Shown here: piece after piece, positions 50,756 to 62,131 of the stretch
Numbering within the stretch: position 1 is the stretch's first letter
How the letters are laid out: every line of letters begins with the position of its first letter
The notes under the pieces: generated by a model
What the model was told of the DNA's origin: nothing
Databases searched by the model: none
The model's input: only the letters and a program-made list of their open reading frames with translations
Position numbers and translations under genes: made by a program
NCBI GenBank assembly: GCA_963663385.2
Contig: CAXXXD010000002.1
Coordinates: 1,408,001 to 1,472,000 of the forward strand
Source: Oceanispirochaeta sp.
Lineage (GTDB): Bacteria; Spirochaetota; Spirochaetia; DSM-2461
Direction: 5' to 3'
Length of the DNA stretch: 64,000 bases

Positions 50756-53700
50756 TTACTCCTTCCAGACTGATTTTACAATAGGGGATTCCCCGATTTC
50801 CTGCAAGCAGGAGGGGGTGGAAGCAATGGAAATCTGTCCTGAGACCTTGATTACCACCTGACCCTGAGGACGGGGCAGATGGAGAAAAACCGTACTGTTT
50901 CCATTATTATCCTGCAGGAATGCCCTGAAATCGATCAGTTCTTCCTGGTTGTACTCCTTCTCCACCATCTCTATATGGACCTCGCTTTGGGCGATTTCCT
51001 TCATCTCTTCGGGTATGTATACCTCTTTAACTTTAAAACTCGGTTCGCTGCGGGACATATCAACCTGTCCGGAGAATCCCAGAACCCTGTCATTTTCCAG
51101 CAAATGACCGTATTGTTCATACACTTTGGAGAACAGGACAATATCGATGGAACCTTTAAAGCCTTCAACCGTGCCAAAGGCCATTTTTGTTCCCTTTTTG
51201 GTCATGGTCTGACGGATTCCCTTGATCATTCCCAGTATGGTGTAATCCTTGTCCGAAGCGGCTCTGCCGGGGTTATCCAGTCTGAGATTGGTGCACTTTC
51301 TCCAGAAGTATTCGTAATCATCAAGTGGGTGACCGGAAAAGTAGAACCCCAGGTTATCCTTTTCTATCTGAAGGATCTCTTTTGACTCCCAGGGCTCCTG
51401 TTCTTCAATATGAAGTTCGGGGGTGATCTCCTCTTCAAAGTCCCCGAAGAGGGATGCCTGCCCGTACATGGTCCGTTCTTTCTGGTTATTCACAAATTCC
51501 AGGATACGGTCCAGATTGTGCAGCAGGGTAGCTCTGTTCCAGGACTCGTACTTGTCAAACAGCCCGGACTGGATGCTCACTTCCACTACCTTCCGGTTGA
51601 CACAACGGAGATCAACCCTTTCCAGCATATCCTGAAGAGACTTGAAAAGGCCGTTTTCATCCCTCTCCCTTATTATCTCATCAACCGCCGCGGACCCCAT
51701 TCCCTTGATCCCGATCAGACCGTAGAATACTTTTCCATCCACAACGGTAAAGTATTTCTCTGAGTAGTTGATATCGGGAGGAAGAATCTCAATCCCCTCC
51801 TTACGGGCCTGCTCCATATAGTTTGTCATCTGGTTGGTGTCATTGATTTCATTGGTCAGGTTGGCCGCCCAGAACTCGGCGGGATGGTTGGCCTTGCAGT
51901 AGGCGGTTTTATAGGCGACGACAGAATAGGCCGCCGCATGAGATTTGTTGAAACCATAACCGGCAAATGGTTCGAGCATGTCAAAGATCCCCGAAGCATG
52001 TTCTTCCGAGTGACCGATCTCCCTGGCCCCCGCAATAAACTCTATCTTCATTTTTGCCATGTCTTTGACTTTTTTCTTACCCATGGCCCGGCGCAGGATA
52101 TCCGCTTTACCAAGGGAGAATCCGCCTATTATCTGGGCAACCTTCATTACCTGTTCCTGGTAGACAATTACCCCGTAGGTGGGCGTCAGGAGCTCTGTCA
52201 AAGAAGGGTCGGGGAATTTGATAGAGGCCGGATTTTTCTTCCCCTCAATGTACTGGGGGATAAACTGCATGGGCCCCGGGCGATAGAGGGCATTCAGGGC
52301 AATCAGGTCTTCGATGTTGCCGGGTTTGGCCCGGCGCAGGATATCCTGCATTCCCGAAGATTCAAACTGGAATACGGCCGTACTCAATCCTTCGCTGAGC
52401 ATCCGGAAGGTTTTTTCATCTTCATCGGATACGGTGTTTACATTAAAATCGGGATCCAGTTTCCTGACCAGCCCTTCAATGTTTTTAAGAAGAGTCAGGG
52501 TTTTCAGACCCAGAAAGTCCATCTTAACCAGACCGCAGGGTTCTATGATATCCATGGTGAATTCAGAGGTGATATCACCGGTCTTCTGATCCTTGTAGAG
52601 GGGGACGTAATCGGTCAGGATGGAGTTTCCGATGACCTTTCCGCAGGCATGGGTGGAGATATGCCGGTTCATCCCCTCCAGTACCTGGGCTACATCAAAA
52701 AGGTCTTTGTAGGCACCGCCCCTGTCGTAGAACTCTTTCAGTTTAGGTTCGATTTCCAGAGCCACCGCCGTATTGATCTTTCGTCCGTCCGGCGCTTTCC
52801 CTTCCGGGATCAGTTTGGTAATGGCATTGGACTCTCCGAAAGGAATATCCAGAACCCGTGCCACATCTTTCAGAACCGCCTTGGTTTTAAGGGTTCCGAA
52901 GGTACAGATCCCGCCCACCTGGTCATGACCGTATTTGCGGTTGACGTATTCTATAACTTCGCCCCGTCTTTCGAAGCAGAAGTCGATATCAAAGTCCGGC
53001 ATGGAGACTCGTTCGGGGTTGAGGAATCTCTCAAAAAGCAGATCGTATTTCAGAGGATCAATATCCGTGATCCCCATGGCATAGGCAATAATGGATCCCG
53101 CTCCGGAACCGCGTCCCGGTCCTACGGGGATATCATTCAGTCTGGCCCAGTGAATAAAATCCCATACAATAAGGAAGTATCCCTCAAAGCCCATCCCCAG
53201 CAGAATATCCAGTTCGTACTCGACCCGTTTGGTAATCTCATCAGTTACTTTGGAATAGCGGTTCTTTATCCCCTCCCATGTTATATGCTTCAGGTACTCG
53301 GCCTGAGTTTTGAAGTCCGTGGGGATTACGTATTCAGGGAGGATGGGACCGGGCTGGGGAATGGTGAGGTTACATTTCTCGGCCAGGCGGACCGTATTTT
53401 CAAGAGCACCGGGAACATGTCCCAGCAGTTCCTGCATCTGCTCGGCAGTTTTGAAATAAAGTTCCTCTTCATCCATTTTGAAGCGCTTTTCATCGCTCAG
53501 TTTTTTTCCGGTTCCTATACAGACCAGTATATCCTGGGCACGGGCATGCTCCTTTTTCAGGTAATGGATATCGTTTGTGGCAATAATGGGGATACCCGTT
53601 TCATCATGGAGCTTGATGATCCCCTCAATAATGGTCTTTTCCTCGGGGATGCCGTGATCCATGACCTCCAGGTAGAAATTGCCTTCTCCAAACAGACTGT

Positions 53701-54220
53701 TATAGTACAGGGCCTTCTCTTTGGCTTTATCGTACTCTCCCGCCACAAGGTAACGGGGTATCTCGCCGGCCATACAGGCGGTGGAACAGATCAGCCCTTC
53801 ATTGTATTTTTCAAGCAGCTCATCGTCTATCCGGGGACGGTAGTAATACCCTTCCGTATATCCCTTGGAAACAAGTCTCATCAGATTCCGGTAACCCTCT
53901 TCGTTCCTGCAGTAGAGTACCAGGTGAAAGTTCTTGTAGCCGGTGGACTGTTTCTCGTAGCGGGAAGTGGGGGAGACATAAACCTCACAGCCTACAACAG
54001 GGTTAATCCCGGCAGCATGACAGGCCTGTTCAAAGCGGAGGGCACCGAAAAGGTTGCCGTGATCAGTCAGTCCCAGGTGTTTCATCCCCATCTCCTGGGC
54101 CATCTCTATGTATTTGGGAATACGGGCGGCACCGTCCAGGAGTGAATAATCCGAGTGGTTGTGAAGATGAACAAATTCCAATTTAACTCCCCTTGGTTTT
54201 ATTGCTGTAAAAATTTCCAT
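50756..54220 (-). CDS. dnaE: DNA polymerase III alpha subunit
   Basis: HLHNHSDYSLLDG PHP domain, GPGRGSGAGS, PDFDIDF, KMDFLGL, GYGFNKSH; no intein seen. Confidence 0.97.
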   Translation of the reverse strand: MEIFTAIKPRGVKLEFVHLHNHSDYSLLDGAARIPKYIEMAQEMGMKHLGLTDHGNLFGALRFEQACHAAGINPVVGCEVYVSPTSRYEKQSTGYKNFHLVLYCRNEEGYRNLMRLVSKGYTEGYYYRPRIDDELLEKYNEGLICSTACMAGEIPRYLVAGEYDKAKEKALYYNSLFGEGNFYLEVMDHGIPEEKTIIEGIIKLHDETGIPIIATNDIHYLKKEHARAQDILVCIGTGKKLSDEKRFKMDEEELYFKTAEQMQELLGHVPGALENTVRLAEKCNLTIPQPGPILPEYVIPTDFKTQAEYLKHITWEGIKNRYSKVTDEITKRVEYELDILLGMGFEGYFLIVWDFIHWARLNDIPVGPGRGSGAGSIIAYAMGITDIDPLKYDLLFERFLNPERVSMPDFDIDFCFERRGEVIEYVNRKYGHDQVGGICTFGTLKTKAVLKDVARVLDIPFGESNAITKLIPEGKAPDGRKINTAVALEIEPKLKEFYDRGGAYKDLFDVAQVLEGMNRHISTHACGKVIGNSILTDYVPLYKDQKTGDITSEFTMDIIEPCGLVKMDFLGLKTLTLLKNIEGLVRKLDPDFNVNTVSDEDEKTFRMLSEGLSTAVFQFESSGMQDILRRAKPGNIEDLIALNALYRPGPMQFIPQYIEGKKNPASIKFPDPSLTELLTPTYGVIVYQEQVMKVAQIIGGFSLGKADILRRAMGKKKVKDMAKMKIEFIAGAREIGHSEEHASGIFDMLEPFAGYGFNKSHAAAYSVVAYKTAYCKANHPAEFWAANLTNEINDTNQMTNYMEQARKEGIEILPPDINYSEKYFTVVDGKVFYGLIGIKGMGSAAVDEIIRERDENGLFKSLQDMLERVDLRCVNRKVVEVSIQSGLFDKYESWNRATLLHNLDRILEFVNNQKERTMYGQASLFGDFEEEITPELHIEEQEPWESKEILQIEKDNLGFYFSGHPLDDYEYFWRKCTNLRLDNPGRAASDKDYTILGMIKGIRQTMTKKGTKMAFGTVEGFKGSIDIVLFSKVYEQYGHLLENDRVLGFSGQVDMSRSEPSFKVKEVYIPEEMKEIAQSEVHIEMVEKEYNQEELIDFRAFLQDNNGNSTVFLHLPRPQGQVVIKVSGQISIASTPSCLQEIGESPIVKSVWKE

Positions 54221-54296: not shown

Positions 54297-55178
54297 TCAG
54301 CTCCCGAACGGGCTTTTAGGCGGGTCTGCCAGAGATTCCAGAAGCTGCCGGAACAGGTTGCGGATAAGATAGGTTTCATAAGGATTCTCACTGGGAGGAT
54401 AGTAATGTTCCAGATTTCCCATCAGCTGATCAGAATCTTTATGATTAAGGGGAAAACGCCGGCCCAGCAGGTTGGCTTCCAGATCCCTGTTCCGCATAAT
54501 GAGCTTTCCTCCATTGGTAAAAGCAAGGCGGATATCTGAAAGAATCCCTTTTTCCATGGAAGCCAGGCAGTTTACAGTAAGATAAAAATCGTTGCGGATA
54601 TTTATTTTACGATGGAATGTAAAATTTCCCAGGTAATAGGGGATGCGTACTCTGGTCAGCATTTCCCCTTCCCCCAGGTTGATCTCTCCCTCCGGTGTCA
54701 GCATATTACCAAGGGGTATCCAGCGTGATTTCATGGACATCTTCTCTTTCCGCCTCGGCCTTACATGGCGCAGTTCGATCCGTGAATCAAGCAGCTGCAG
54801 TACCGGAAAAAGGTCCATCCTGCGTTCGGGAATGCAGAGATTGCCTCCCAGTGTGGCGCAGTTCCGGATGGGGTTGGGACCCATTTGGCAGAGAGTATCC
54901 TGCAGAAGAGGTGACCGGAAAATATAGGAAGCTTCTATCATCCTGTTGATCGTCACACAGCAGCCGGCTTCGGCGTAGCGGTCGGTTCTGGATATCTTCT
55001 TCAGTTCTTCCAGCTGAGAGAGGGATAGAACCGAGTTATGAATACCCTCCCTGTTTAAAGTGTGGTTAAGGAGGTTGGTCCCCCCTGCCATAAGCAGGGC
55101 CCCCGGGTTTTTCCGGTATAGACTGAGAAGGTCCATAATATTTTGAGGAATACTGATATGGTAGGGAGGCTGTTTCAT
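54297..55178 (-). CDS. Xanthine dehydrogenase family FAD-binding (medium) subunit
   Basis: AGGTNL and IRNCATLGGNLC motifs. Confidence 0.85.
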   Translation of the reverse strand: MKQPPYHISIPQNIMDLLSLYRKNPGALLMAGGTNLLNHTLNREGIHNSVLSLSQLEELKKISRTDRYAEAGCCVTINRMIEASYIFRSPLLQDTLCQMGPNPIRNCATLGGNLCIPERRMDLFPVLQLLDSRIELRHVRPRRKEKMSMKSRWIPLGNMLTPEGEINLGEGEMLTRVRIPYYLGNFTFHRKINIRNDFYLTVNCLASMEKGILSDIRLAFTNGGKLIMRNRDLEANLLGRRFPLNHKDSDQLMGNLEHYYPPSENPYETYLIRNLFRQLLESLADPPKSPFGS

Positions 55179-55651
55179 CTGCTCAGTCTCCTCTGTCTGA
55201 TTCGGGCGGAAGTGAGAATCCCTTCTTTAAGGGTTTCATAGGGGGTACAGTTACATTTCACGGTAGTCAGGATCTCATTGATATGCTTTTCTTCGGGTCG
55301 GATAAACTTGTCCAGCAGTACACCGGTAGTCAGAGTTCTTGCGGGGGCACAATAGTCGCATAGATGTACCCCGGCCTGTTTGAAACCTTCAACAATATCG
55401 TTGAATTCTTCAGTTTCGGCATAGCCTTCAATGGTTTGTACGGATTTTCCTTTTATCTGAAAGACCGGAACCATGCAGGAGTAAACCAGTTCTCCTTCCA
55501 GAACCACCGAACACAAACCGCAGAATCCCTTCTCACAGGCCGATCTGAGTCCTGTGAGACTAAAATCTTCCCGCAGTACATCCGACAGCCTTTTATAGGC
55601 TGGTACCTCTATGGATGTCTCCTGACCGTTCAGTTCAAATTCTATCAGCAT
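55175..55651 (-). CDS. Xanthine dehydrogenase family [2Fe-2S] (small) subunit
   Basis: CEKGFCGLC...SC and LCDYC...CNC; TIEG. Confidence 0.9.
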   Translation of the reverse strand: MLIEFELNGQETSIEVPAYKRLSDVLREDFSLTGLRSACEKGFCGLCSVVLEGELVYSCMVPVFQIKGKSVQTIEGYAETEEFNDIVEGFKQAGVHLCDYCAPARTLTTGVLLDKFIRPEEKHINEILTTVKCNCTPYETLKEGILTSARIRQRRLSR

Positions 55652-57699
55652 CAGCCTGTCTCCTCTTGAAGGAGCTCGGCAGAATCGAGAGGAAGGGATT
55701 TTACAGTTTGTCCCGATGCCAGAGAAACAGCCTGAGCAAAGGCGGCGGGTATCGCTCCAAGGATTAATCCTTCCAATCCTCCAATCCTGGCATTTCTGCC
55801 CTCTATTTCAAGAAAATCAATATGAAGTTTCGGGAACACTGTCGGCCTGATGGCCTGCTTCTTCAGGCACTGGCATAGAGCCAGCCGGACTTCCGCTTCA
55901 ATAAATGAGCGGGCGGAAGTCCTGTCAAGCAAAAGCCCGCAATGGATGGAGATCCAAATACGGGGAACATGGATCTCCATAGTTGCCGTTTCCAGTTGAA
56001 CTTCTACCACCACGGCTGCCCATGAAGGAGCCGAGAAGGGAACCCCTATCATAATTTTCTCGTCCCAGTCAGATTTGGTCCTTCTTCGGTATGACCCCGT
56101 TTCTGTAATGGGAAGAGCTTCACGAAAACGCTTTTTCTGAATCAGATCACAGCTCTGGTCGATCAGTTTCGTCAGGATCGTACTGCTCCGTGAAAGGGTT
56201 GAAGGGCCTGTGAAAAGCTGTTCATCCGCTATATCCATGACAAAACTAATCTGCTCTTCCTCGATGGATAGTCTGTCGGCCACTCTTTTTGTCCAGACCG
56301 CCAGAAGGGCCGGCGTGGCGGGCACTCCGTTTATTATAATTCCCAGATCCCCTTCTTTTCCCAGGGTCGCGGAGACACTGGCCGCTGTCAGTACCTTTTC
56401 TCTGGAGAGGAATTCATTCCCCTGAAAGCAGGTTGCCAGGCCCACACCGTTATATGCGGTAGGCAGGAGATCCAGCTTTGTGCTGTTTAAACGGACCTGT
56501 CTGCCTGCAGCATGTTTCCTTGTATAATCGGATTCACGGCACAGGCTGTCTATCATGACGCCCAGGGGGAGATTCTGCCTGACCGGACCAGAAGTGGGGA
56601 GGAGGTTCCCTTTCTGCACCATATTCTGTTTTCTCCAGTCTGCCGGATCGATACCCGACTCCTCGGCCAGGTGATTGGCAAACATTTCCATTCCGAAGAA
56701 TCCCTGGGGCAGACCCCAGCCGGTCATGGGAAACCAGGGGGGGGTGTTACTGAGATAGGCATACCCGTCAATCTGGATATTCCGGCACTGATAGTAGGAG
56801 GCTGAGGATACGCATAACCGGGAAAGAACCTCGGTTGTAAAGCAGCCGAAGGCTCCTGCATCAATCTGGAAATCCGCCTTCAATGCGGTTAAACGCCCGT
56901 GGGAATCTATTCCCGCTTTATACCGGATCTTCAGTTCCCGGGGAATAAAGGGGTGGTTTTCCTGTTCATCCATAAGACGGATCGGCTGACGAAGGATGGA
57001 CGCCGCTGCAACCGTAAGGGCTGCCGGAACAGCACTCTGCCAGAGGTGGGTGTCCCAGCTTCTGCCTGCCGTATTAAAGCGAAGTTCAACCTGTTTTCGG
57101 CTGATATTGGCTGCCAGGGCGCAGAACTTTCTGATAATAGACGGCCATTGTGTATGCAGGTGGAGAATATATTTTCCCCCCTCTTTTGTACAGAAAATCC
57201 CCATGCGCGGGTAGCTTGGAATTTCCGGCATTACAAGATTGTATTCACCTTCCATAATCCGGTCGGCTTTAATCATCCCCCGGTCAATATCCCCTTTCCG
57301 TATTTTACGGTATCCCGCAGAAAAGCGGGGATCCTTTATGGCGGAAGGCGGAAAAGAGGGGATTCGGCGAATCCGACAGTGAATCTCCCTGCTGATCCTG
57401 GTAAGTGAGTCCTGGTCAGGTCCGCATAAAATACCGACTGGCTGTCCCGGATAGAGAATCCTGTCTTCGGCCAGAAGGGGAATGGCGCAGTCCGGGAGGG
57501 GCATGAGATTTTTACCCGGCAGATCACCGGCCCTCATAAAAAGCATGTCATCGGTCAGTTTCGGTATCTCTATGCTTTCCAGGAGCCCCTGGGAGTAGGG
57601 AGCCCGTATCAGTATGGCATGGGCCATTTTTTTATTTGTCAGGTCCTCGGGGAACCGGATCTGTCCGGCCAGGCGGTTACGGAATTTCACTTCATCCAC
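55651..57699 (-). CDS. Xanthine dehydrogenase family large subunit, degenerate Moco motifs
   Basis: Hammerhead N-terminus (GQIRFPED, IRAPY, DLPGKN, YPGQPV), GIDPADWR, STLSR, VEVQLETAT; 682 aa. Confidence 0.8.
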   Translation of the reverse strand: MDEVKFRNRLAGQIRFPEDLTNKKMAHAILIRAPYSQGLLESIEIPKLTDDMLFMRAGDLPGKNLMPLPDCAIPLLAEDRILYPGQPVGILCGPDQDSLTRISREIHCRIRRIPSFPPSAIKDPRFSAGYRKIRKGDIDRGMIKADRIMEGEYNLVMPEIPSYPRMGIFCTKEGGKYILHLHTQWPSIIRKFCALAANISRKQVELRFNTAGRSWDTHLWQSAVPAALTVAAASILRQPIRLMDEQENHPFIPRELKIRYKAGIDSHGRLTALKADFQIDAGAFGCFTTEVLSRLCVSSASYYQCRNIQIDGYAYLSNTPPWFPMTGWGLPQGFFGMEMFANHLAEESGIDPADWRKQNMVQKGNLLPTSGPVRQNLPLGVMIDSLCRESDYTRKHAAGRQVRLNSTKLDLLPTAYNGVGLATCFQGNEFLSREKVLTAASVSATLGKEGDLGIIINGVPATPALLAVWTKRVADRLSIEEEQISFVMDIADEQLFTGPSTLSRSSTILTKLIDQSCDLIQKKRFREALPITETGSYRRRTKSDWDEKIMIGVPFSAPSWAAVVVEVQLETATMEIHVPRIWISIHCGLLLDRTSARSFIEAEVRLALCQCLKKQAIRPTVFPKLHIDFLEIEGRNARIGGLEGLILGAIPAAFAQAVSLASGQTVKSLPLDSAELLQEETG

Positions 57700-58894
57700 T
57701 GCTGACGCACTCCTTAATCCGGTAACGGCTGCCTATTTTCTGAACCGAATCTGTCACACGGTATAACTGATCCATTGTCATATCCGGAAAGAGGGGAAGG
57801 CTGATAACTCTCCTGAAGCTGTCCGCGGCAAAGGGGAAATCCTCCTCTGTGAAGCCGTATCGGTTCTTGTAGTAGCTCATCATATGCAGGGGTTTGTAGT
57901 GGACGGAAGTCCCGATACCCTCATTCTGAAGTTCTTCGATAAAGCGGTTCCGTGATATGCCGAGTTTCTCTGTCCGGATTTTTATCCAGAACAGATGCCA
58001 GGCATGTTCATCCTTCCAGGAGGGGAGTTCAATAAAATCCAGCTCTCCCAGAGCAGCAAGATAGGCTTTCACCAGCCGCTGTCTCCTCTCCATCATATCT
58101 TCCGCCCGTCCAAGCTGGATTCTTCCGATTGCAGCAGCCAGGTCGGTCATATTGTATTTGAATCCGGGAGCCACAACATCATACTCCCAGGCTGCCTTAT
58201 TCGAGGTGTAACGATCCCAGGCAGCCCTGTCAATGCCGTGAAGGCGCATAATTTCCATCCGTCTGGCCAACTCCGGATGAGAGACTGCTATCATACCTCC
58301 TTCTCCGGTCGTTATGGTTTTATTGGCGTAGAATGAGTAGACTCCCGCATCTGTGTAGGTCCCGACAAAACCCTGTTCCGTCCAGACAGGAAAACAGTGG
58401 GCGGCATCTTCGACCAGAAACAGATCATTCTGCCGGGCCAGATCGTGCAGGTCTTTCAGAAATTGGGGATCCCCCCCAATGTGAACGGGCAGGATCCCTT
58501 TAATACTCCGTTTCTTCTCTCTGAGTTTTCTGATGGCATCCTCTGTTTTTTCCGGATCCATATTCATCCCGCGGGGACCCATGTCCACAAACCATGGATC
58601 GGCGCCGCAGTACCGGACAACTTCCGCTGTCGCCGTAAAAGTATATGTGGGAAGGAGAACGGTATCTCCCGGACCGACTCCCATGGCTTCCATGGCAAGG
58701 TGAAGACCGGCGGTTGCGGAATTCACAGCCAGTGTATGAGCCGCCCCCGAGAAATCGGCAAACTCCTTCTCAAAAGCAAGGGTTTCTTTTCCTGTTGTGA
58801 GCCATCCGCTGCGCAGCACGCGCAGTACAGCTTCTTCTTCCTCTTTCCCGATTGACGGGCGTGAGAAGGGGATAAAATCAGTATTCCGGTTCAT
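57692..58894 (-). CDS. DegT/DnrJ/EryC1/StrS nucleotide-sugar aminotransferase
   Basis: SGWLTTG, NSATAGLH, EDAAH, SFYANKTITTGEGG, GFKYNMTD. Confidence 0.93.
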   Translation of the reverse strand: MNRNTDFIPFSRPSIGKEEEEAVLRVLRSGWLTTGKETLAFEKEFADFSGAAHTLAVNSATAGLHLAMEAMGVGPGDTVLLPTYTFTATAEVVRYCGADPWFVDMGPRGMNMDPEKTEDAIRKLREKKRSIKGILPVHIGGDPQFLKDLHDLARQNDLFLVEDAAHCFPVWTEQGFVGTYTDAGVYSFYANKTITTGEGGMIAVSHPELARRMEIMRLHGIDRAAWDRYTSNKAAWEYDVVAPGFKYNMTDLAAAIGRIQLGRAEDMMERRQRLVKAYLAALGELDFIELPSWKDEHAWHLFWIKIRTEKLGISRNRFIEELQNEGIGTSVHYKPLHMMSYYKNRYGFTEEDFPFAADSFRRVISLPLFPDMTMDQLYRVTDSVQKIGSRYRIKECVSSG

Positions 58895-60350
58895 TTTCTG
58901 GTACCTGCATGGAGGGAAAATATTCCTGAAGGATAGTTCTCAGGCTGTGACGGTTTCGATAAAGTCCGGGATTTTCCGGATCAAAAAAGCAGATGGAGGA
59001 AACTTTTTCTGCAATCACAGAAGCAGGCACTGCGCCGGCATCCGGTTTTACTTTAAAAATCCTGGCATACTCTGTCTGTACGGGGTCTTCGAGTTCATTC
59101 CATAACTTCTCAATTATCTTCTCACCGGGGCGCATTCCTATAAACTGTATGGGTATATCCGATTCCCTGTAACCATAGAACCGTATCATCTGCCTGGCCA
59201 GGTCCAGGATTTTTATGGGTTCTCCCATGTCCAGAATATAAAGCCCGCCGTTGTGTCCGACTCCTCCGGCTTTAAGAACCAGGGAGGAAGCTTCCGGGAT
59301 GGTCATAAAGTAGCGGGTTGTATCGGGATGGGTAACTGTCACAGGCCCCCCTGTGAGAATCTGCTCTTTGAAGAGGGGGATGATGCTCCCTCTGGAGCCC
59401 AGCACATTCCCGAAACGCACTACCATAAAATCCAGGCCCTTTTTCCTCTTCTCCAGAACAAGCATCTCTGCCAGCCTTTTGGTCACACCGTAAACGCAGG
59501 AGGGGTTTACCGCCTTATCGGTCGAAATCAGAACAAGCCGCGGCACTCCAACCTCTTCGGCTGCACGGATCAGATTCAGGGTACCGAAAACATTGTTTTT
59601 TACAGCTTCCACCGGATTCACTTCCATCATGGGTACATGTTTATGAGCGGCACAATGAAAAATAACATCCGCTTTCAGGCGTTTCAGAATAAAATCCATG
59701 TAGTTACGGTCCTGCAGATCCCCTATTACAGGCACGACAGTCGCTCTCTCTCCAACGCCACCTTCCTGCAGGAGGCGCAGTTCCTTTTCAATCCGGTAGA
59801 TGCTGTTTTCTCCATGTCCCAGCAGGTACAGGCGTTCCGCACCGCCCGACAGGAGCTGACGGGCCAGTTCGCTGCCGATGCTTCCTCCCGCGCCTGTAAT
59901 CAGGACTCTTTTCCCTCGCAGGTAGGAGAGGCTTTCAAACAGATCAATCGAGACGGGAGTGCGGCCCAGAAGGTCCTCAGGGTTTATATCACGGGCCTGA
60001 ATAAGATGGGCATGACCGTTTACAATCTGTGAAATGTTGGGGAGTATCCGGATGCGTGTAAACTCTGCCTTGCTCAGTGTGCTGTATATTTTTGACAGCT
60101 CTTCCCGGGTTGCTGTCGGGATGGCTATGATGGCTTCGTCTGCCGGAGTGGTCGTCAAAATCCTTGTAAAAGCATTGATAGGTCCCAAAACAGGAATCCC
60201 ATTGATTTCCGTTCCTATCTTTTCCGGGTTATCATCGAGGAAGGCCACCACTTCGCCGGCTGTTTTTCTGCTGTTTATCTCTTCTGCAATATTGGTTCCG
60301 GCAAATCCGGCGCCAATTATAAATATTCTGGTCTTTTTCTTTGTACTCAC
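58878..60350 (-). CDS. UDP-GlcNAc 4,6-dehydratase-like (CapD/PglF family), no N-terminal membrane domain
   Basis: GAGFAG CoA-binding-like domain, TGAGGSIGSEL, HCAAHKHVP, ISTDKAVNP, RFGNVLGSRGS, RPGEK. Confidence 0.92.
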   Translation of the reverse strand: MSTKKKTRIFIIGAGFAGTNIAEEINSRKTAGEVVAFLDDNPEKIGTEINGIPVLGPINAFTRILTTTPADEAIIAIPTATREELSKIYSTLSKAEFTRIRILPNISQIVNGHAHLIQARDINPEDLLGRTPVSIDLFESLSYLRGKRVLITGAGGSIGSELARQLLSGGAERLYLLGHGENSIYRIEKELRLLQEGGVGERATVVPVIGDLQDRNYMDFILKRLKADVIFHCAAHKHVPMMEVNPVEAVKNNVFGTLNLIRAAEEVGVPRLVLISTDKAVNPSCVYGVTKRLAEMLVLEKRKKGLDFMVVRFGNVLGSRGSIIPLFKEQILTGGPVTVTHPDTTRYFMTIPEASSLVLKAGGVGHNGGLYILDMGEPIKILDLARQMIRFYGYRESDIPIQFIGMRPGEKIIEKLWNELEDPVQTEYARIFKVKPDAGAVPASVIAEKVSSICFFDPENPGLYRNRHSLRTILQEYFPSMQVPENEPEY

Positions 60351-60522
60351 CAAATCAGAATAGCATAGCCCGATTGATTAGTTAATAGAAAACTGCCATT
60401 TTAAAGGCGGGGACGATTTCTTGTATAAAACACTTCTAAATCCTGAAATTACGCCGATAATATGAAAAACCTCTTATGGTCTTTAGAGAACCTGACAGAA
60501 GAGAAGGATAACGGGAGACAGA

Positions 60523-60978
60523 ATGAGAAAGTATTTATCCGGAAAAATATTTCCAGCAGGAATACTGGCTGCATTACTGCTGATGACAGATTTGACAGCG
60601 CAGACAGCCATAGTGAATGCTCAGCCCCTGAGCCCTGCGGCGGAAGCTGCTGCAGACTATACAAAAGATGTGGAAACGGGACTGTTGGAATACCTCTTTG
60701 ATCTGGGGTATATCATTTTCAATCAATCTACAGCAGACTCAGCTCCCGTACTGGTTGAGCTGGGAAAAGAGACCGGAGCGGATATTGTTATAGACTGGTC
60801 CCAGAACTCCGAAGGCCTTGACGGCTCTCTTATTGACTGCCGGACAGGACAGACAATAAGGGCCGTCACAATTGATCAGAAGGTTTTTGAGGACATATAT
60901 AAAAATAATGATCATGAAATGTATTCCGCAATGGGATATCGTTTATGTGAAGAGATGATACCGGATGAATGGAATTAA
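60523..60978 (+). CDS. Hypothetical exported protein
   Basis: 151-aa ORF with GGGAG RBS and a signal-peptide-like N-terminus. Confidence 0.6.
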   Translation: MRKYLSGKIFPAGILAALLLMTDLTAQTAIVNAQPLSPAAEAAADYTKDVETGLLEYLFDLGYIIFNQSTADSAPVLVELGKETGADIVIDWSQNSEGLDGSLIDCRTGQTIRAVTIDQKVFEDIYKNNDHEMYSAMGYRLCEEMIPDEWN

Positions 60979-60994
60979 GGCAGGAGCTTCAAAA

Positions 60995-62131
60995 ATGATG
61001 GATTTTACGAAAAAACCGGGAAGAACGACTCTTATCGGATTATTACTGACTCTGGCGCTGGTCTGGTCTGTTACTGCCGAACCGGTCTGGTCCGGCAATG
61101 CATCTGTGGATAGTACGGAATTTATCAATTTTGTTGAGGATACTCCTCTGGCAGGAGCCTCAAGTTCATTCACCAGAAATACGGTTGTGGAAGTAACAAA
61201 TCCCCAGAACGGCAGAACTATTGAGGTGACAATAGTAAAAAGGGCTCCCAGACCGGGTGTCTTTCTCGTTTTGAGCGGGCAGGCCGGAGAGGCGCTGGAT
61301 TTTCCCGCTGATCAGGTCATCCCCGTTCAGGTCCGTGTCGTAACCGATAAGGAGGAGTCGGGTTATGACAGCCGTTTTGAAAGTACGGATCCCGATATCA
61401 ATCCTGCCGTTAATCTGCCTGCCAGCGAAGCCTCTGCCCTGGTACCCCCCGATCCGGAAGGGACTGTGGTGTCCGGCGATACAGAAGCCGGGCTCTCCCT
61501 GACTGAGGCGGCAGAAGATATTCCTGTGGATTCAGAGATAAGGGATCTCCCTCCCGAGACAGATTCCTTTCTGGATGAACCTGTTCCGGTACCCCTTCCA
61601 GCCGAACCGGAAGAGCTGCTTGCTCTGGCAGAGGAGACTCCCGATAAAGGAGATGTTCTGCCGGAGGAAACAGAAGAGTCTGTTCCGGAGGTTGAAGTAA
61701 CAGAAACTCCCGTTATAGACAGCGTGGCGGAAGTTCCCGCAGAGTTGATCCCGGAAAATCCGGATGAAGACAATGTCATCTACTTTCTGACACCCTCTGA
61801 TTTCAGACCTCCCGTTGCTCCTGTTGAAACAGCGGAGGAAGAAATTGTACCAGTCTATGTGGAAAGGGACGTTCTGGAAGATCAAATCGCGGATCAGTTG
61901 AAAAACGGATCTTCCTATATTCAGCTGGGAGCTTATACAAGTGCGGAAATTGTGTATTCCGAAATGGAGAGTATCGCATCCCGGTACCCCATGATTGTAT
62001 GGACTGACAAGGTGGATAAAGAAACCGTATACAAGCTTCTGATCGGTCCTCTGACCAGTGATGAAACCGGTGTTCTGGTTTACCGTTTTCGGGCCGGGGG
62101 ATACCCCGATCTTTTTCTGTACAAACCCTGA
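60995..62131 (+). CDS. Exported protein with RlpA-like N-terminal domain, acidic linker and SPOR domain
   Basis: TVVEVTNPQNGRTIEVTIV (double-psi barrel-like), E/P-rich linker, YIQLGAY...YKLLIGP. Confidence 0.8.
   Translation: MMDFTKKPGRTTLIGLLLTLALVWSVTAEPVWSGNASVDSTEFINFVEDTPLAGASSSFTRNTVVEVTNPQNGRTIEVTIVKRAPRPGVFLVLSGQAGEALDFPADQVIPVQVRVVTDKEESGYDSRFESTDPDINPAVNLPASEASALVPPDPEGTVVSGDTEAGLSLTEAAEDIPVDSEIRDLPPETDSFLDEPVPVPLPAEPEELLALAEETPDKGDVLPEETEESVPEVEVTETPVIDSVAEVPAELIPENPDEDNVIYFLTPSDFRPPVAPVETAEEEIVPVYVERDVLEDQIADQLKNGSSYIQLGAYTSAEIVYSEMESIASRYPMIVWTDKVDKETVYKLLIGPLTSDETGVLVYRFRAGGYPDLFLYKP

Follow-up and report, generated by a model that had tools for sequence, protein, structure and literature searches.

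Three-subunit molybdoenzymes of the xanthine oxidase family, such as PucD/E/C, XdhA/C/B, CoxL/S/M, 4-hydroxybenzoyl-CoA reductase, and XdhD-YgfM, share their folds and gene set with a trio of genes for a large (L), a small (S), and a medium (M) subunit of Oceanispirochaeta sp. (template modelling (TM) scores of 0.84-0.87 to structures of xanthine oxidase and dehydrogenase). However, this trio, which lies in a stretch of 64,000 nucleotides (assembly GCA_963663385.2, contig CAXXXD010000002.1, positions 1,408,001 to 1,472,000; hereafter, the window), lacks the residues for the molybdenum cofactor (Moco) and for catalysis, has a conserved residue set of its own, and stands in a neighbourhood of housekeeping type. 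A counterpart has been described in Borrelia, where bb_0554-56 (622, 155, and 289 amino acids (aa)) was published as a putative xanthine dehydrogenase (XDH), 'XdhACB', that is, as a putative urate-forming Moco enzyme, with no mention of cofactor loss in the accessible part of the article; mutants of this locus fail under peroxide as well as in ticks and mice (Phelan et al. 2023, PMC9993122), and the screens behind that work have also been published (PMC5333916, PMC6516651). In Treponema pallidum, TP0079-TP0081 are annotated, in the accessible text of two articles, as hypothetical, 'quinoline 2-oxidoreductase', or XDH-like (PMC2386257, PMC4403809). The two-hybrid partner ThiI of TP0079 and TP0080 (PMC2386257) was considered and rejected as noise, with counts of 26 baits for ThiI as prey and 13 for TP0080. 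Outside this family, NuoG/Nqo3 of complex I also keeps a molybdoenzyme fold without the cofactor but, unlike the window trio, belongs to another fold family and is part of a respiratory complex (PMC10609526, as far as its available text goes). In the literature searched, mostly without subscription journals and bioRxiv supplements, neither a Moco-less equivalent within the xanthine oxidase family nor a report of this cofactor loss for Treponema, Borrelia, or spirochaetes was found.

The window trio is a real, hitherto mis-annotated variant within the xanthine oxidase family, and sequence comparison confirms that it belongs to one Moco-less clade. Its genes are the following:

55651-57699, minus strand: large subunit gene (682 aa), an intact open reading frame (ORF) matching PF02738 (E 2.7e-36) and PF20256 (E 2.7e-11)
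55175-55651, minus strand: small subunit gene (158 aa), an intact ORF with Fer2 and Fer2_2 domains and both sets of [2Fe-2S] cysteines
54297-55178, minus strand: medium subunit gene (293 aa), an intact ORF matching FAD_binding_5 (PF00941, E 4.3e-28), with the motifs for flavin adenine dinucleotide (FAD)

The three frames overlap by 1 bp and 4 bp, and contigs from two runs, which may be those from which the assembly was built, agree with the stretch throughout (0 differences, 0 gaps). The original prediction, made from the window alone, had described three intact overlapping ORFs that retain the FAD motifs and all eight iron-sulphur (Fe-S) cysteines, and these statements hold: AGGTNL and IRNCATLGGN are both present in the medium subunit, and the small subunit has 8/8 cysteines (39, 44, 47, 59, 98, 101, 133, and 135).

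The Moco site was scored at ten positions of the large subunit, nine for Moco binding and one for the catalytic Glu, and separately at the small-subunit Gln, with a canonical protein of the same genome as reference and with the roles and bovine numbering established for the family. The window large subunit keeps 0/10 of these Moco and catalytic residues and the canonical controls keep 10/10 in 16/16 cases, a comparison of sequences which confirms that the absence in the window is not due to chance; the first two Moco motifs are also visible in an alignment to human xanthine oxidoreductase. The replacements in the large subunit, as read from the alignment, are as follows:

57046-57066, minus strand: GRSWDTH (residues 212-218), replacing GGxFGGK
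56713-56727, minus strand: MTGWG (325-329), replacing FRGFG, with loss of the pterin-stacking Arg
56308-56316, minus strand: TPA (462-464), replacing GQG
55768-55782, minus strand: GGLEG (640-644), replacing KGxGE, with Gly644 at the catalytic-Glu column

Moreover, GGxxQG of the canonical enzymes reads AEVRLA. The replacements MTGWG, AEVRLA, and GGLEG had been anticipated correctly, whereas the register of two others had to be amended, since GGGFGGK corresponds to GRSWDTH and not to TAGRSWD, and GQG to TPA and not to PAT. Glu643, which directly precedes the catalytic-Glu column, is not conserved across the clade; a one-residue shift at this column of the window copy is conceivable from the alignment. 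In the small subunit, Leu97 takes the place of the pterin-contacting Gln, and LCDYC stands for QCGFC and CNC for CRC, two changes that had likewise been noticed before.

The large subunit is confidently modelled as retaining the xanthine-oxidase Mo-domain fold, with a predicted local distance difference test (pLDDT) score of 94.1 for the AlphaFold model built from 150 sequences. Foldseek comparison of this model with xanthine oxidase and dehydrogenase structures gave TM scores of 0.81-0.87 at 16-19% identity (0.84 to 1fiq_C, bovine xanthine oxidase). The trio falls below the curated cut-offs of the named XDH equivalogs TIGR02965, TIGR03196, NF043082, and TIGR03194, and all NCBIfam scores are far under cut-off, the best of the large subunit being 100 bits vs 850. 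A search of the ESM Atlas returned FAD_binding_5 clusters only.

Loci were sampled from 300 genomes of the phylum, 250 genomes of the class, and targeted sets, and the large subunit was counted in 123 full-length relatives from 41 families of the host class and 83 genera, once three incomplete genes (L063, L115, and L143) and loci duplicated within a single genome had been removed. Among them, 115/123 keep at most two of the ten Moco and catalytic residues, with a maximum of five, and the small-subunit Gln is found in 1/124 clade members vs 16/16 canonical ones. Canonical subunits match the profile as well, and its class-wide match rate of 239/251 is therefore an upper bound. The medium-subunit profile gave no match in families f58 (0/3), f63 (0/3), and f80 (0/2), in 2/3 f83 genomes, and in one f56 genome, where strongly eroded copies like L178 could escape it, and in f82 genomes its scores were of canonical level only.

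A single Moco-less clade is recovered both in the tree of the three subunits (101 rows, support 1.0) and in that of the small and medium subunits (42 rows, Shimodaira-Hasegawa-like approximate likelihood ratio test value of 100), each with an outgroup of only 8-9 canonical spirochaete trimers. Nearest to the clade among canonical trimers are the spirochaete loci L035-L038, L139, and L148, which sit among genes judged by eye to be purine-degradation genes, and clusters of this type occur in Spirochaetota according to the accessible text of PMC12507026. Thus, the clade appears, from its sequences, to be derived from purine-degrading molybdoenzymes, and the presence of both canonical and Moco-less copies in several genomes points to an origin by duplication and divergence. 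The early-branching L099, L105, L106, L112, and L119 retain some Moco motifs (e.g., MGQG, FRGAG, and IQCGFC) and seem to be intermediates of Moco-site loss.

The trio persists in hosts where genes for Moco synthesis were not detected. Family f2 carries the large gene in 40/40 genomes (25 of them read by residue, all Moco-less), with MoaC in 0/40 and MoeA in 0/40; XdhC exceeds the cut-off in 3/40, and in 37/40 the trio persists without moaC, moeA, and xdhC. In f5, the family of the Borrelia trio, searches gave MoaC 0/12, MoeA 0/7, and XdhC 0/12. Genomes G095, G238, and G295 have MoaC and MoeA, yet their trio motifs are equally lost, so that motif loss is independent of the Moco status of the host. 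As judged from its residues, the trio is almost certainly not a Moco-dependent enzyme.

The genome to which the window itself belongs, G000, which is 98% complete, has no MoaC, MoeA, MoCF_biosynth, or Mob_synth_C match. Genes for three XDH-type large subunits of the canonical kind and one gene with an XdhC domain were observed in it (C4:849382-852101, C2:531241-534941, C2:502154-505623, and C1:547590-552192), the last with neighbours that we take to be selD/YqeB/YqeC-like. Family f32 resembles G000, with XdhC in 4/5 and, among the matches listed, no MoaC or MoeA. Moco scavenging, or an assembly gap, is possible in G000. Decay of its motif-intact paralogue (L170, C2:502154-504291) was considered and rejected, as the split is an assembly error and contigs of three runs (X1, X2, and X4) have one extra base. 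A short way upstream of an ssnA-like/XDH-type cluster of the same genome, three near-identical tandem ORFs of 130 aa were also observed (C2:527884-529561).

Regarding Borrelia, BB0554-56 forms a trio orthologous to that of the window, in the same L-S-M order and with the same sizes; locus L068 corresponds to BB0554 as printed in the supplement of PMC9993122, with the same opening residues and end coordinate. The f5 trios score better with clade than with canonical profiles, their large subunits align with the clade profile in HHalign over 571 columns (probability 98.9, E 2.7e-17), and they share 12/32 clade-diagnostic vs 1/64 canonical-diagnostic positions. In both trees, f5 is placed within the Moco-less clade, but only tentatively, on a very long branch. 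A fold model of its large subunit from 8 sequences reached a pLDDT of 41 and was not used. In contrast to the window, which keeps all of them, Borrelia has lost the FAD motifs, the Fe/S II cysteines, and the capD-degT link described below, so that only the four Fe/S I cysteines (CxxC...CxC) are left of its redox sites.

These data bear on the published assignment of the locus as a genuine Moco-dependent XDH, perhaps one with a scavenged cofactor. The rescue of the Borrelia mutant by uric acid and its phenocopy by allopurinol (PMC9993122) speak for such an enzyme, and G000, with its XdhC-containing gene and canonical XDH genes but no moa genes, indicates that scavenging may exist in spirochaetes. 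Nevertheless, 0/10 Moco residues in the window, 1/64 canonical-diagnostic positions in f5, and the absence of MoaC, XdhC, the FAD motif, and Fe/S II in the latter make it very improbable; in addition, urate is a general antioxidant and, in the accessible part of their article, the authors neither detected uric acid nor confirmed XDH activity (PMC9993122). Thus, the label 'xanthine dehydrogenase' on BB0554-56 is likely wrong, as judged from the sequences, and the urate model is unlikely because the Borrelia trio is without a Moco site, an FAD motif, and a Moco pathway in the host.

Loss of a cofactor site might also reflect decay, and the low identity to solved relatives (16-19%) and the extreme erosion in f83 could suggest pseudogenes. 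In one f83 genome (G385), locus L178 shows the arrangement capD-degT-L-S-M with a large subunit of 528 aa and a small subunit almost without cysteines, and appears to be a fully cofactor-free form. However, the frames are intact, the Borrelia mutants have phenotypes, the trio is retained in reduced genomes of 0.9-1.1 Mb, and the ratios of non-synonymous to synonymous substitutions (dN/dS) are far below 1, which leaves decay with a virtually negligible chance. The ratios, estimated by the Nei-Gojobori method in 21 pairs (seven of which share one genome, the window's own pair having a dS of at least 1.7), were 0.02-0.19 for the three subunits in 14 non-f5 pairs and 0.07-0.34 in 5 f5 pairs; of the remaining two, one was saturated and the other, a canonical control, gave 0.09-0.17. 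The trio is thus under purifying selection across the clade. The original prediction had spoken of a repurposed, Mo-independent complex rather than decay, and three of the checks that it had named strongly support it: the occurrence in f2 genomes without MoaC and MoeA, the dN/dS ratios, and the intact structural homology to xanthine oxidase and dehydrogenase.

The same prediction had proposed a flavo-iron-sulphur electron-transfer or sensing role. A Mo-free electron transfer would run from NAD(P)H through FAD, Fe/S II, and Fe/S I to a partner or to a small molecule at the vacated cofactor site, Fe/S II being the link between FAD and Fe/S I. The FAD motif and the eight cysteines of the window copy are compatible with it, and so is the majority of the clade, with both Fe-S sets in 99/124 loci and the FAD motif in 109/121; moreover, NuoG offers a precedent, in another family, of a Moco-less bis(pyranopterin guanine dinucleotide)-type fold in complex I (PMC10609526, available text). 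However, 15 loci have lost Fe/S II and 11 have lost Fe/S I, and erosion of the FAD motif affects 16 (14 without L081 and L129). When these two truncated ORFs are removed from the set of 124 loci, the wire is broken by loss of Fe-S site(s) or of the FAD motif in 26/122 loci of 14 families, all of which retain the three genes. On the large-subunit-only tree, the fewest changes needed are 7 for Fe/S II, 6 for Fe/S I, 6 for FAD, and 13 for a loss of any kind, with L081 and L129 still included in the FAD and any-loss figures. In L033 and L180, Fe/S II has gone from between a retained FAD motif and Fe/S I, and f5 and L179 are without FAD as well; furthermore, several canonical medium-subunit residues near flavin and NAD (columns of D122, K191, and K199) are unconserved in the clade. 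Thus, the wire seems to be dispensable and to have been broken through about a dozen separate changes. Electron transfer is plausible for the window copy, but it cannot be the family-wide function, because Fe-S or FAD sites are lost in those 26 loci with all three genes kept, and as an account of the clade it is rather unlikely; a putative sensing role fits better as the family function.

The repeated loss of FAD and Fe-S sites and a gain of conserved residues are both newly described here. Residues specific to the clade and absent from canonical proteins are W185, W469, RFRxPLP (524-530), and Q660 in the large subunit, F64 in the small subunit, and R64, R67, Y68, E70, E135, R137, W153, R176, R178, W184, and LPL (242-244, including P243) in the medium subunit, which holds most of them. 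Two of these sites are located in the window as follows:

57142-57153, minus strand: TQWP (183-186) with the clade-specific Trp185, a position with Trp in 84% of non-f5 genera and Cys in 94% of canonical proteins
56110-56136, minus strand: KKRFREALP (522-530), the clade-specific RFRxPLP loop in the clade alignment

Trp185 probably lies beside the vacated cofactor site. Four to five of five clade-specific medium-subunit residues are found in all broken-wire loci but L178, and canonical proteins have 0-3 of them.

The reading that we tentatively prefer, its chance falling a little short of even, is that of a putative non-catalytic L-S-M complex that would act as a scaffold or regulator through new surfaces, with flavin and Fe-S as optional redox input. 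An ancestral XDH-type three-gene module would have lost its Moco site while its genes were kept, the putative complex would bind a partner through the newly conserved surfaces, and FAD and Fe-S, where present, would act as structural and redox-input elements. Borrelia no longer has the motifs for FAD and Fe/S II, and the mechanism would therefore account only indirectly for the sensitivity of its mutants to peroxide. A bolder version, which is possible but doubtful, envisages a pseudoenzyme core machine across the spirochaete class, in which the predicted medium-subunit face would bind another copy, nucleic acid, or an envelope or replication partner (it might, for example, join XDH-type dimers to form larger assemblies), and flavin and Fe-S would constitute a redox switch.

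Several observations weigh against the preferred non-catalytic complex. The FAD and both Fe-S sites occur in most members and equally fit true electron transfer there, and a Glu is still at the catalytic column in 42/123 large subunits. Since conservation across the clade, with f5 counted in, guided the choice of the five medium-subunit residues, their persistence arises partly by construction, and their placement on one exposed face is suggested by the strand pattern only. In an approximately unbiased test, the tree with f5 among canonical rows was not rejected (p 0.42). Motif-intact XDH genes without moaC and moeA occur in G000 and f32 too, and thus missing Moco synthesis alone is no proof and it is the residue evidence that carries the argument. 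Finally, a purine-blind scaffold leaves the allopurinol phenocopy and the uric-acid rescue in Borrelia unexplained.

Another reading is that of a purine-binding sensor, in which the old substrate funnel would bind hypoxanthine, xanthine, or urate without turnover and signal. In its favour, the effect of allopurinol on Borrelia depends on the operon (PMC9993122, accessible text). In addition, the ancestor was located in purine-degradation clusters, and an aromatic residue is often left at the second Phe of FRGFG in the clade (W328 in the window). However, the substrate-pocket motifs are highly variable in the clade and unrecognisable in f5, and no purine genes were found beside the Moco-less loci that were listed in full, which renders such a sensor improbable.

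In the window, the trio ends a run of five overlapping minus-strand genes, capD-degT-L-S-M, whose other members and downstream neighbour are the following:

58878-60353, minus strand: CapD/PglF-like nucleotide-sugar 4,6-dehydratase (491 aa), the first gene of the overlapping five-gene run
57692-58894, minus strand: DegT-family aminotransferase (400 aa), with the Lys-type motif SFYANK at 187 and an 8-bp overlap with the large gene
50756-54220, minus strand: gene that, from its sequence, we take to be dnaE-like, 76 bp downstream of the trio

The order cap5D (TP0077), spsC (TP0078), COG1529, COG2080, and COG1319 of T. pallidum is that of this five-gene run, as given in the accessible text of PMC2386257 and PMC4403809. 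The putative orthology of TP0079-81 to the window trio, and with it their inclusion in the clade, is deduced from this gene order and from family labels.

Such an arrangement could indicate a reductase partner of the CapD/DegT amino-deoxysugar pathway, comparable to the E1/E3 pair of 3,6-dideoxyhexose synthesis. The overlap of the five genes and the presence of DegT directly upstream of the trio in 82/98 loci favour this idea. Nevertheless, E1-type dehydrases have a His, and in its place the window DegT carries the Lys typical of ordinary transaminases (SFYANK). Furthermore, the linkage is absent in 16/98 loci, and f5, f59, f65, f69, f70, f95, f56, and part of f6 are without it where the trio stays, so that a reductase of this type has a slim chance. 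An obligatory capD-degT link was likewise rejected. The dnaE gene is downstream in 39/72 loci, and neither the DegT nor the dnaE neighbour is obligatory. The dN/dS of DegT (0.06-0.19) is similar to that of the trio. A flagellar role was also rejected, as the Moco-less form is found in families f65 and f70, whose genomes gave FlaA in 0/10 and 0/4 cases, respectively.

A NusG-like gene heads the operon in several relatives (L114:2416-2952; L040:8989-9528, directly before the large gene; L180:12120-12641; and L181:12732-13277), and is putatively of the LoaP type; in the window, no NusG-like gene lies between capD and the divergent gene. A divergent plus-strand pair at 60523-62131, encoding a hypothetical protein of 151 aa and an RlpA-like protein (double-psi beta-barrel), stands opposite the operon in many relatives too. 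A promoter scan gave chance level (17 vs 14.5).

The loss of the Moco site overturns the standing annotation in Treponema and the published functional assignment of a locus that Borrelia needs in ticks and mice, and it turns the true function of the latter into a concrete, testable question. The family offers a natural series that starts with an intact enzyme, passes through basal members whose motifs are partly eroded (L105, L106, and L119), and arrives at what appears to be a cofactor-free scaffold, retained even in pathogen genomes of 0.9-1.1 Mb. If the core-machine reading were true, this clade would give the xanthine oxidase family its first Moco-free branch and would show what truly underlies a Borrelia locus essential for infection.

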